A DNA stretch of 64,000 bases, taken from Podarcis cretensis. Lineage: Eukaryota. The DNA lies in NCBI GenBank assembly GCA_951804945.1, contig OX638156.1:44516001-44580000 (forward strand). Reading direction: 5' to 3'. The translations under genes and the position numbers were made by a program. Below, piece after piece: positions 4,137-9,427 of the stretch. Each line of letters begins with the position of its first letter. Positions within the stretch are counted from its first letter, which is position 1. Below the pieces are notes generated by a model. That model worked only from the letters and a program-made list of their open reading frames with translations. It ran no database searches and was not told the origin of the DNA.

Positions 4137-4378
4137 TGCTCGAGAGATCTATGACTGAGTAGAAAAGCTATTGGAAAGCTCTCTAATTGGCACTGTAATG
4201 GCACTTTGATTACTCAAAAGTATATACATAGTAGCATCTACTGATGGATGTGCCTCCCATAGCCTAAGCTGATTTCCTACAAAGCGTGTTCTCCTTCATG
4301 GAGAGCGCATGTTGCGTTGGGGTCTAACAAGACATCCCACTGTTGCTGGGTGGGTAAAAGAGAGTTGCCACAATTACG

Positions 4379-4482
4379 ATTGGGTGCTTCTTGTTGTTGG
4401 GGAGATTTTGATGTTGCTATTTTGTGATTGACAGCCACAAGCTATATATTCCTTGCGTGCAGTGTTGAGCTTCCTCTTTTCG
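4379..4482 (+). promoter_or_regulatory. Putative Pol II core promoter of the repeat
   Basis: Reverse CCAAT (ATTGG, 4379-4383), TATATAT (4443-4449) and pyrimidine initiator/TCT-like CTTCCTCTTTTC (4470-4481) about 27 nt downstream of the TATA start. Confidence 0.35.
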
Positions 4483-4670
4483 CTGCACGCATCAGATCAC
4501 CTGCCCACCCTCCCTGATTTTAGGGTGTTTTTTGCGTTTGACCTTGCTATGCCTGTCATGGGGTCATCTGCTTTTGGGGCAGGGGCCTGGTAGGAATTTT
4601 GTCCACTTGGCTGATTGGCTGGTACCATTTGGTTTTTGCCTACTGTGTAGCAAATCATCACAACTTGTAA

Positions 4671-4978
4671 GGTTGCAGTTAGGCATTGGTTTTATAAATT
4701 GGTTGGTGGAGGGGTATGGATTGGCTGTGCATGCCCCTCCAATGCTGCTGCTGTAAGGGTATTCCATTAAAGGAATCCAGGGGTTTGCCATGCTTTTGTT
4801 CGAACCCCTGTCAAGGGGCTAGGGCCACGCAAGAGCCCCTGGCAACATTTGGGGAGAGGCATGGTACCCAGCTCCATCTCTCTCCCCAGAATGTTTTCCC
4901 TTTCTGACTTCATGGGCGTGCAAATGTCAGTCTGTCCCCATGCGGGGTCAGATGGTCGTAACCAATGCCTAAGCAACC
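4671..4978 (+). ncRNA. Predicted multibranch structured RNA domain (six hairpins, 19-bp closing stem)
   Basis: 4671-4691 pairs with 4960-4978. Hairpins at 4707-4741, 4761-4776, 4778-4810, 4814-4840, 4844-4895 and 4903-4952. Transcription is not demonstrated. Confidence 0.45.
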
Positions 4979-4998
4979 ACTCACATTTTTTGTATTTT

Positions 4999-5075
4999 AA
5001 TAAAGTTGTGGCTAAAATTATGCCTAAAAACTTAAACAAAAATTCTGTTTGAATTGTGTTTTATTTGGGGTGGCT
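4999..5075 (+). terminator. Putative polyadenylation signal with GU/U-rich downstream element
   Basis: AATAAA at 4999-5004, followed by TTCTGTTTGAATTGTGTTTTATTTGGGGTGG from about 5043. Confidence 0.4.
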
Positions 5076-5104
5076 TGGGGACCTCAACACCCAAATTGGA
5101 AGTA

Positions 5105-5456
5105 CCGTATTTTTCGCCCTATAGGCCGCACCGGCCCATAGGGTGCACCTAGTTTTGGGGGAGGAAATAAAGAAAAAAAGCCCAAGCTTCCCCTGACCCC
5201 AGCCCCCAGAACAGGCTGCTATCCGCAAGCCTGGGGAGCCCGGGGGGGACTCCCACTGGGCTCCCCAGGCTTGCGGATATCTGCCCGAAGCCCGGGGTGC
5301 GCTCCGCTGCGCTCCCCGGGTTTCGGGCTGCAGGCTGCTGTCTGCAAGCCTGGGGAGCCTGGCGGGAACTCCCGCGGGCTCCCAAGGCTTGCGGATAGCT
5401 TCCTGAAGCTTGGAGAGAGAGGGGGGTTGGTGCGTCCTATAGGGTGAAAAATATGG
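5105..5456. mobile_element. Tc1/mariner superfamily (Tc2/pogo-like) MITE
   Basis: TIRs CCGTATTTTTCGCCCTATAG / CTATAGGGTGAAAAATATGG (18/20 match). TA TSD at 5103-5104 and 5457-5458. CCGTA termini are typical of Tc2-like elements. CpG-rich interior with three hairpins. Confidence 0.85.
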
Positions 5457-6109
5457 TAGTTTGGTGTATCCTCAAGCCAAGCCAACCTTGGAGACTCCCG
5501 CCCACCTGCCTTGTCTTCTTTCTCCACCCACTCTCTCCCACCCCAACCCTCCTTTCCTTCAATCCCATTTACCTAGCTAGTGAGGCAGTTTAGAGGACTG
5601 TCGGGTGTGGGAAAGTAGGTCCCATCTGGGAGGGAGGCTGGTTCTCTGAGCTACAGAAGAATTAAGAGATCATAATACTCAACTCATAACTGAAGCCCCC
5701 TGAAGTATGAACTTAATAACACATCTAGTAGCATCAGTTTACAAGTGTGGTAGCACTGTCAAACTTCTGTACTTGTTATTTCAGGCTCATCATCATTTTG
5801 GGCTCTCATGCTCCTGTAATCATTTGGGGGAAGTTCTGTGTGCATGCTACCAGTACAAGGGAGTATACTGATCCTCACAACTTTGCTGCCAAAATAGCAG
5901 GAACTGCAATAGCCTTCAATTGTGTGCACAAGTATGTTCACCATTCCCATGAGACTCCCTCCAGAGACCCTAACAATTTTACTGCAATTGTCTAGAAGAC
6001 GTTCAGCCTATATGAATCACTCAGCTATAAGACGATTCCTAGTATCATTCGTTTATTTCCACAAATTAAGTTTTTAAGACCATTTATTTCCCAGGTTACA
6101 CATACAAAC

Positions 6110-6930: not shown

Positions 6931-7814
6931 GTATCAACGTCAAGCACAAGTTTTAAATGCCCACCCCCTCTCCTTTCCCCGCAAACACAGGGGCAAAATT
7001 CTAGTTAACTTCCAAATGACTCCACATTGCTAAACATTTCAAATTTTCCAAGGCTGACCGGGGTTGATTAAATATGTCCTCTCCTACTGGAAGACTGCTA
7101 GGCTCGCACTGCTGCTTTTTATTTTGTGGTGCCCTTCTCAGATATCACATGAAACAAAGGAGGCAGGAAGGCAGGAATGTTGATGGCTTCAGTCTTCCAT
7201 TGCCTAGAAATGCAGAAACCTGAAGCCATCTCAGACACAGAAAGCACTCTCACAAACAGGAAGAGGTGGAGATTCAGCCAGGCCTATGCAGCTTGTGAGC
7301 TGCCAGCCTAAACACCACCACCAGTCATGCATTGCGGCCTGCCAAGTGCGTAACAACCCCTTCCATTGTTTTGTGGTCCAAAGCAAGCAGCAAAATCCAC
7401 AGATTTATCAATTTCCTGGTGGGGTGCAGTGAAAGGATAGTCATCTGTGTTTGCCTTGGAGGCTCGCAAGTGCATTTTATTAAAGCTGTTGTATGGAGTC
7501 ATTTTTAATTTACATATAACCACTTTGCACACATACACAGAAAAGCATAATAAATGCTCTAGGTAAATAATTTTATTTTTAACACCAGCTGCTTTTTAAA
7601 AGAACTGTACCTTTAAGAACTGATACTTCAATTCCCCTGTTCTCCTCCCTCCCCATCCCCTATTCCTTTTGTGTCATGTCTTTCAGATTGCAAGGCTGAA
7701 GGCACCACCCAAGACACTCTGGGAGCATTTTCAGCTGACAAATGGGATAAAACTATTTTATAGAAATATAAAACTGTCTATGATCTTTGAGAGTTCTTGG
7801 AGAACAAGTGAAGT

Positions 7815-8166
7815 CCCTACAAAGAAGACTGAGAGGAGATATGATATCCATCTTCAAATATCTTAAGGGCTGTCACATGGAAGAGGGAACTTGCTTGTTT
7901 TCTCCTGCTCTGGATGACAGGACTCGAACCAATGGCTTCAAGTTACAAGAAGGGAGATTCCTACTAAACATTCAGGAAATTTTTTTGACAATAAGAGCTG
8001 TGTGGAAGTAGAACAGACTCCCACGAGAGGTGTGGACTCTACTTCCTCAGAGGTTTTTAAGCAGAGCCTGGATGGCCATCTGTCATGGATGCTTTTGCTG
8101 AGATGCCTGCATTGCAGGGGTTGGACTAGATGACCCCTGGATCCATTCCAACTCTAAGATTCTATA
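7815..8166 (+). mobile_element. CR1 LINE 3' end (ORF2 C-terminus plus 3' UTR), 5'-truncated
   Basis: Peptide RRLRGDMISIFKYLKGCHMEEG...LFS...RTRTNGFKLQEGRF...FLTIRAV is typical of the CR1 ORF2 C-terminus. It ends GGGGTTGGACTAGATGACC...TTCCAACTCTAAGATTCTAT, the CR1 hairpin plus ATTCTRT tail. Confidence 0.92.
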
Positions 8167-9427
8167 AATAAATCAGCTGAATCAACTGCAGCAACAGTGA
8201 GAACAGGAACCTCTGCACCACCAGAGGATTTCACAGTGTAACTTGTGAAAAGTCTTACAATTCCTCAGAAGCACGCTTGGATATGAGAACATTTTAACTT
8301 CCTTTCACCTGCATTAATTCTCTTGCTTGTCACTGAGAACATGAATGGTGTTACATTCTTGATGAAATGTCAGTGAATAAGCTACATTTCCTTTACAACA
8401 CAAAATTGGGTTATAGGATAAATTCTTTAGGGCAATATTTTTAACCGCCTAGCAATTGTTCTCCTCTCTTCATGTGGAGTTCTAAAAAGGGCTTTTAAAA
8501 GATGCAAATAGGGTGCCTTCTGTTGGTTGTGCCTGTTTATCGCTGTGCTAGAGAGAGGAAAGCAAGTGCCAAGGTTCTTGATATTTGCTCTTGAATCATT
8601 ATCACTCTAATAGTGATAATTAAAGAGAGCACTGAGTGGTCTCGAGCAAGCAGCTGAAGTAAACAGCTTTTGGGTGGTTAGGGGGCTAAATAAACCCATT
8701 CTGCATGGCCAAGCAGTAGTCCATGATGTCTAAGCAAGAAATCATATCAGACATAAGGAAAGAGGGAGGTTATGTGAATTAGGGGAAAATACAAATCAAT
8801 TTGATACCTGGAAGTAAACATCTTGTTAATAATAAATTCCGCTGCCCTCTATCCCAAAGGGGGAGCCTGTGTGCATCCCATGTGGGGACTGGAAAGTGCT
8901 CTCTCTCTCTTTCTCTCTCAAAGCTGCAGGAGGAGGAAAGCTTTGCCAACCCATCCCAGCTCCCTTAATTATTTTAATTGCAGCAGCGCAATGCCAACAC
9001 ACTGAATTACCCCCTCAGGCTCAGGCTGCTTAGCCAGGAGGTACTGAATTAAACTGTCAGAACATGCAGAAAAATTGCAATGGTGCCTGTCAACAGTATT
9101 TGTTAAGAGACTCGGGTGAAGCAAGTGACTTATATAGAAAAAGAGCTGCCGGTGCAGAGTCGTCAAAGCGCAGCACTGGAACTAATGGGGTATTCAGAGG
9201 TCTTGTTCTACTTCATTGGTCAAAGCCAACAAAAAAAAAAACCCTAGTAATATTTGGGGCGGTTTGCTATTTATGGCCATGGTAATAAAAAAGGCTGTTT
9301 AAAACTGCAAAGCCATCCTTGACAAAGCGGTCCCCACCAGCTGCGTTTTTGTAAGGCGGAGAGGCCACTGTCCAAACACCAAAATCAGGGCTGTCCACAG
9401 ATTAACATGGGGGCATAGGCAGGGGCC

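Follow-up and report, generated by a model that had tools for sequence, protein, structure and literature searches.

Can a hairpin with two opposed U-tracts, found in a 64,000-nt stretch of the Podarcis cretensis genome (the window, from whose first nucleotide all positions are counted), clamp a poly(A) tail, and in what kind of element does it reside? A preliminary description of this DNA took the hairpin for an ENE-like element of a vertebrate retroelement, with a lower-stem variant shared with CR1 3′ ends and a distant stem that loops out the sequence further downstream. Established ENEs include those of KSHV PAN RNA, MALAT1/NEAT1 and transposable elements of plants and fungi, according to the cited sections of PMC7583470 and PMC13541005. 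The results partly support the overall interpretation. The motif is a real, conserved RNA module of Ngaro 3′ ends, and its reading as an ENE-like poly(A) clamp, forming one arm of a conserved predicted three-way junction in the Ngaro spacer, is put forward with modest confidence.

Host Element and Position of the Motif

The unit that carries the hairpin (Table 1) is a solo A-spacer-B remnant of a Ngaro tyrosine-recombinase retrotransposon. A search of the same genome gave 4734 candidates, 40 of which were scored; 26 of the 29 other copies fetched span the same ~820 bp (84.5–89.8% identity), with sharp, AA-bounded ends and unrelated flanks. In loci with a tyrosine recombinase, the halves of the unit stand in swapped order downstream of the ORFs, the 3′ half first and the 5′ half second. 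Six of the twelve extended YR loci have the order A1–ORF1–RT–YR–SGNH–B1–A2–spacer–B2, which is the split direct repeat arrangement of Ngaro (A1...B1 A2 B2), and the repeats within these full elements are 97.5–100% identical. The Ngaro set of reverse transcriptase, tyrosine recombinase and SGNH ORF was found in L051 and L055 (RVT_1, Phage_integrase and Lipase_GDSL_2, the SGNH match being under the curated cut-off). Because the full elements show this layout, the window unit is a solo A-spacer-B, the expected outcome of A1/A2 recombination; they are sister families, 71–76% identical to the window unit, and the parent of the window family itself is not among them. A LINE or SINE as host was ruled out by the fixed ends and the split direct repeats. 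The retroelement host of the preliminary description thus stands in refined form, as a Ngaro solo remnant, the hairpin forming part of a larger predicted fold, a three-way junction, as one of its arms.

Table 1. Features of the Ngaro solo unit in the window.
Feature	Position (nt)	Strand	Basis
Solo A-spacer-B remnant of Ngaro retrotransposon, AA-bounded	4281–5094	+	Family copies; A2-spacer-B2 end of full elements
A repeat, likely promoter	4281–4499	+	A1/A2 boundaries of full elements; promoter role inferred
Single-copy spacer between A2 and B2	4500–4670	+	161–183 bp in six full elements
Predicted three-way junction	4544–4653	+	93.3% of cells paired over 42 clusters; model R1
ENE-like arm	4589–4644	+	Coordinates checked in sequence; family covariation
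5′ strand of predicted helix with 5003–5011, overlapping hexamer end	4658–4666	+	Cells paired in 24 units
B repeat, closed by long-range stem 4679–4691/4960–4972	4671–5094	+	Full-element comparison; stem pairing
AATAAA, candidate poly(A) signal	4999–5004	+	Most conserved segment across 24 units

The A1-ORFs-B1-A2-B2 layout and the RT, YR and SGNH ORFs agree with the cited accounts of Ngaro from Xenopus (PMC9210276) and Cafeteria (PMC8547959), the latter of which also describes solo AB repeats. The VIPER-derived SIRE (PMC6681497) consists, like the window unit, of A2, a unique internal piece and B2. The portions of these three accounts that were available describe no RNA structure in the A2-B2 spacer.

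In the six full elements the spacer occurs once per element, and the motif is missing after A1 and before B1. A covariance model (R1), built from 29 Ngaro rows that include the window copy and two of the six full elements, returned one match in each full element, always in the spacer. In six truncated elements and eight CR1 ends no score exceeded 24 bits. Six of the twelve YR-bearing elements (L054, L056–L060) stop at or near B1; they are without the motif because A2-spacer-B2 is missing there. Among ORF-bearing RNAs, the motif would be present only in the full-length RNA that reads through B1, and no other RNA would hold both A and B whole.

Near the end of A, the window has a TATA-like site (4443–4448) and a pyrimidine-rich, initiator-like segment (4473–4479), which we take to be TCT/TOP-like. 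The TATA-like box is 30 nt before the initiator, with similar spacing in five full elements (the pyrimidine run is weaker in L052). A2 and solo units could drive an RNA of ~550 nt.

Several other repeats were noted. Directly after the Ngaro solo lies a MITE-like element (5100–5461) with 38-nt terminal inverted repeats (84%) and nested GC-rich palindromes inside them, a further copy of which is in L022. L070 and L072, from two different Ngaro families, both have the same SINE-like repeat within the lower-stem 3′ strand, with insertion points that nearly coincide. L031 (G000:C29:3261-6731), on a CpG-rich contig of 58% GC, encodes a bacterial-type integrase (E 8.6e-25) and is likely a contaminant or prophage contig in the assembly.

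Structure and Covariation of the Spacer Fold

The window copy has the lower stem (4589–4594/4639–4644), the tracts T4 (4597–4600) and T5 (4633–4637) and the upper arms (4603–4610/4625–4632, six of eight positions paired) where the preliminary description placed them; the arms are better drawn as 3 bp, a 2 × 2 pyrimidine loop and 3–4 bp. Segment 4595–4600 is AA plus the U-tract and 4633–4638 is the U-tract plus G, with the upper stem within 4603–4632. A 2 × 2 loop (AR opposite YG) separates the lower stem from the U-tracts. In folds that contain the lower stem, prediction leaves the first three U of the 5′ tract single-stranded (paired probability 0.06). The arm is helix P3 of a predicted junction that also comprises P1 (4544–4551/4646–4653) and P2 (4562–4565/4584–4587). 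Model R1 matches 4541–4660 of the window with 81 bits, the window copy being in its training set, and a search of Rfam found no family matching the motif.

A scan for the stem/T4+/stem layout yields a single instance in the 64-kb window and none in 40 block shuffles, and the motif is not due to chance. Taken alone, the window copy is not unusually stable (z −0.17), and the pair probability of its lower stem in local context is 0.02; the corresponding value is above 0.5 in 14 of 19 family copies and 0.84–1.0 in four intact elements. The window copy is a decayed member of a real motif, itself under no evident selection. For the window motif in isolation, the fold of lowest energy is a slipped helix, which was rejected because position 4591 covaries with 4642.

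Genome pattern searches recovered lower stems in matched types: U-A (1679 matches, control 0), C-G (376), a 7-bp AA-UU form (785) and A-U (208 including a G variant, control 5), the last three with patterns that demanded the pair. A pattern blind to the pair gave 4287 matches (control 33). Among the first 100 of these, tallied by eye, 94 pair (73 U-A, 14 C-G, 2 A-U and 5 wobble), and four of the six mismatches are chance matches without an inner stem. From 54 clusters, 42 were used after removal of four non-homologous regex matches and eight duplicates or truncated copies, and the proportion of paired cells (93.3%) compares with 87.9 ± 0.6 for shuffled and 30–51% for slid partners. P1 and P2, which lie outside every search pattern, are 90–92% paired, with double changes that in P2 affect three of four pairs. 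RNAalifold recovers P2 and P3 and misses P1. Kinship inflates such covariation counts, which reflect a few ancestral events and not independent copies. The stems, as judged from these alignments, covary across dozens of Ngaro subfamilies, and the pair-blind pattern together with the 42 clusters bears out the conserved stem/U-loop/stem with compensatory changes that had been proposed.

Over 24 pattern-selected units, column identity is 0.94 and 0.87 for the two loop strands with the lower stem, 0.57 for the upper stem and loop, and 0.43–0.58 for A, the B body and the B end; the motif would thus combine a variable cap with a fixed U-loop. The cap ranges from a 3-nt loop to a 30-nt hairpin. Next to the U-loop, the upper stem is closed by C-G in 43 of 46 clusters; on the lower side a G-C is found in 42/42, but it is set off by the 2 × 2 loop and belongs to a pattern-selected stem.

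Two explanations that give the RNA fold no role are weighed best against these data. A hairpin that arose by chance and was spread by repeat amplification would account for copies related by descent within a family and for a window copy that folds no better than shuffles; it is nevertheless highly improbable, as the motif persists in families where column identity of the A and B bodies has dropped to about 0.45–0.55, its stems covary, and the fold is found outside Ngaro too. Equally hard to credit is a DNA element with passenger flanks. The window loop reads as a reverse CCAAT box, presumably of the NF-Y-type consensus, and similar boxes recur in A and B, but three stems have compensatory changes, several families with 3-nt caps are without the box, and the motif is downstream of the TATA-like site.

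The U-Tracts

Because selection for U-tracts was to be avoided, tract conservation was assessed in a sample anchored on the 3′ flank only (2378 matches, control 44). Thirty loci from this sample comprised 29 Ngaro copies and one chance match; five were truncated or deleted, and 24 had the whole arm. Both tracts are kept in all 24 intact arms, with at least four U per side in 21 (by eye). Loss of the U-tracts or flanking stems among copies had been named beforehand as evidence against an ENE; both tracts are retained, and the stems covary.

In the window family, a test for tracts of at least four U gave 25/30 and 28/30. The tracts are U3C/U3 in the family with 785 matches, which includes an intact element, and U3-4/U3 in that with 376 matches, and the shorter tract has three U in 27 of 50 clusters, old decayed copies included. 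The cited part of PMC7583470 gives the KSHV ENE five triples and reports that a helix is supported by four in succession. Tract length is marginal for an ENE in some families, and the two abundant families with three-U tracts count against a clamp.

Poly(A) Signal, Long-Range Helices and RNA Reads

The hexamer and the 9 nt after it form the best conserved segment across 24 units (0.98), and in most units the hexamer is 302–426 nt downstream of the motif. The closing stem proposed in the preliminary description is real: it has 13 bp, is 100% complementary, can be extended to 4671/4978 and loops out about 270–300 nt. Sixteen of the 24 units could be anchored; in these, 152 of the stem's 160 cells are paired, and one unit has two compensatory changes. 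A second long-range helix, which had been missed, begins 4 nt after P1 and joins the spacer (4658–4666) to positions 5003–5011, which comprise the two final A of the hexamer plus the next 7 nt. It is paired in 229 of 238 cells and shows no compensatory change among the 24 units; predicted hexamer accessibility shows no clear difference between B1 and B2. This want of covariation in the hexamer helix and the similar accessibility of B1 and B2 count against the clamp. In L051 and L055, sequence after the SGNH stop, just before B1, is complementary to B just past its closing stem; such pairing would give B1 an outer helix of its own, replacing the spacer helix of B2.

These helices raise another explanation, that the spacer fold regulates 3′-end processing, acting as a U-rich upstream element and, by way of the hexamer helix, setting the use of the B2 signal relative to the identical one in B1. 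Only the upstream context differs between the two, because B1 and B2 are 97.5–100% identical, and the pairing of the spacer with the hexamer end is as such a regulator would have it. The explanation is improbable in view of the similar hexamer accessibility predicted for B1 and B2, the opposed U-tracts inside a stem, which it leaves unexplained, and the presence of the fold in repeats without such a B context.

An encoded A-tract is not conserved: past the hexamer, where the window family has A-runs, other families have T-runs, so that the triplex partner, if any, would be the added tail. A conserved A-rich tract like the one that precedes a tRNA-like element in the MALAT1/NEAT1 type was thus not found, nor was an Rfam match.

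Two sets of four RNA runs from a related organism contained 76–123 matching reads per run, mostly 85–95% alike and partial. Depth peaks on the motif and the hexamer and is zero over the YR ORF, a profile that tracks sequence conservation and solo copy number. The reads revealed no start or end sites, and no A-tail was seen among 24 of the 53 and 57 loose ends; they are counted neither for nor against the clamp. A scan of sequencing runs listed no RNA run that carries the motif. A site of poly(A) addition was not detected, which counts against the clamp. A search for processed copies ending in poly(A) returned one locus, a fragment among other repeats.

Matches outside Ngaro and the CR1 Link

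A young CR1 family of this genome has an esterase ORF1, an endonuclease ORF2 and a ~60-nt 3′ UTR. The motif is missing from all 17 complete ends of this family among the 20 fetched, and that a young CR1 family transposes without it counts against the clamp. The window itself contains a 5′-truncated CR1 end (about 7775–8168) with a short 3′ UTR and no motif, which served as the CR1 terminus reference.

Viral contigs gave 12 pattern matches, all by chance, and metagenomes at least 113, with two true among the matches listed; model R1 scored 97 of the at least 125 matches from both sources. The two true matches are L230 (57.5 bits) and L224 (54.7 bits), both scored along the entire junction; chance matches reach at most 21. 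They are without Ngaro flank and have a second, weaker and degenerate arm in tandem after the junction. L224 also carries a separate short-UTR CR1 piece, and both contigs are probably bird-like. Judging by the model scores, the fold is present in a non-Ngaro repeat, to which old A-U type Ngaro families of this genome form a bridge.

A strict CR1-type pattern has one match in this genome (L050; 25 bits, over the arm only), and no CR1 end was found at that locus. In one of eight relics tested (L359), a decayed arm scoring 9.9 bits with model R1 has a CR1 terminus about 200 nt further downstream, with scores of 40 and 33 that none of 300 shuffles reached (highest 29); the relic has no recognisable ORF2. 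The Ngaro-CR1 link of the preliminary description is thus partly supported: a homologous fold outside Ngaro and one decayed CR1 relic favour it, and the young CR1 ends speak against it. The lower-stem variant thought to be shared with CR1 is not confined to CR1, the A-U type being found in Ngaro families of this genome.

These matches bear on the main rival of the ENE reading, in which proteins would recognise the junction as a mark of full-length Ngaro RNA, for packaging or for the start of reverse transcription, and the U-U loop would be structural or protein-binding. Such a signal would follow the same logic of position, and that it would occupy the same place counts against the clamp. It would also suit the conservation of P1, P2 and the AR/YG loop beyond the needs of a simple ENE, and tracts of as few as three U; element proteins are known to recognise the 3′ tails of LINEs, according to the cited portion of PMC4176376. 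This rival is considered a real but unlikely alternative. The fold is common to a non-Ngaro repeat and a CR1 relic, whose proteins are unrelated, pairwise comparison of the Ngaro SGNH and the CR1 esterase found no similarity (E 0.13), the esterase-bearing young CR1 is without the motif, and the apical loop varies freely. Recurrence of the fold in a non-Ngaro repeat would fit a function with no need for an element-specific protein.

Comparison with Known ENEs

The predicted fold, with its covariation, has the single-domain ENE layout. As far as the cited sections of PMC7583470 and PMC13541005 describe it, the KSHV PAN ENE shares with the Ngaro motif the stem/U-rich internal loop/stem, G-C rich flanks, which in the Ngaro motif adjoin the U-loop on the upper side, a variable cap and a place upstream of a poly(A) signal, in Ngaro a candidate one. 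It differs in its five triples, whereas the Ngaro motif has U3–U6 per side, carries a 2 × 2 AR/YG loop under the U-loop and is set in a three-way junction, which the literature examined does not describe for known ENEs. The 2 × 2 loop between U-loop and lower stem and the three-way junction count against a classical ENE. The dENE lower domain also has an interrupted A-minor stem according to reviews. The Ngaro motif is about 350 nt from its hexamer, unlike that of KSHV, and would be brought close by the predicted long-range helices.

Among transposable elements, the ENE of Evade occupies a spacer upstream of the 3′ LTR and increases mobility, and its flanking G-C pairs are essential, in the cited part of PMC12501189. 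The Evade/Copia93 ENE and the plant and fungal dENEs share with the Ngaro motif a retrotransposon host and a unique spacer just before the terminal repeat. The Ngaro host is, unlike these, a vertebrate tyrosine-recombinase element with split direct repeats, and its motif has one U-loop and not the two of plant and fungal dENEs; the upper loop is merely 2 × 2 and is missing in short-capped families. ENEs have also been predicted in slime-mould transposable elements and stickleback retroviruses (Tycowski 2016, as summarised in PMC7583470), and because of the latter an ENE in a vertebrate retroelement is not unprecedented. The stickleback elements, compared by description only, likewise place an ENE-like element in a vertebrate retroelement, of a different order as far as that summary states. 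A literature search found no ENE or spacer fold in Ngaro or CR1; the Tycowski 2016 survey may bear on the point.

Proposed Function and Significance

On the preferred reading, an ENE-like clamp, the opposed U-tracts would form U-A:U triples with the poly(A) tail of the element itself, which would slow deadenylation. Transcription would start near the end of A. Cleavage takes place 10–30 nt past a hexamer, and RNA reading through B1 would be cleaved at this distance past the hexamer of B2. With the B body looped out by the two long-range helices (Table 1), the tail would emerge no more than about 20 nt from the junction. Selective protection would then go to the sole RNA with a whole A and a whole B, from which a complete element could be copied. 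No clamp would be present on RNA that ends in B1; short RNAs, if transcribed from A2 or a solo unit, would have the clamp as well.

A wider joint reading is speculative and, taken as a whole, doubtful. It would see the three-way-junction ENE as a mobile module swapped between unrelated vertebrate retroelement orders (Ngaro and CR1), which in Ngaro serves as a selective tail clamp on replication-competent RNA and works with as few as three U-A:U triples, the tail being pre-positioned by the junction and the long-range helices. The thousands of solo A-spacer-B units would then be promoter-clamp-poly(A) cassettes for a stable, PAN-like RNA of ~550 nt.

How split-repeat retrotransposons cope with two identical poly(A) signals and come to favour full-length RNA is a question to which the spacer fold brings a directly testable cis element. 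If the motif is an ENE, poly(A) clamps would extend to a new retroelement order in vertebrates, and its dozens of natural variants (U3 to U6) would probe the minimal triplex. Candidate stability elements would then be present at more than 5000 genomic sites (4287 + 785 pattern matches), some of which could alter host transcripts.
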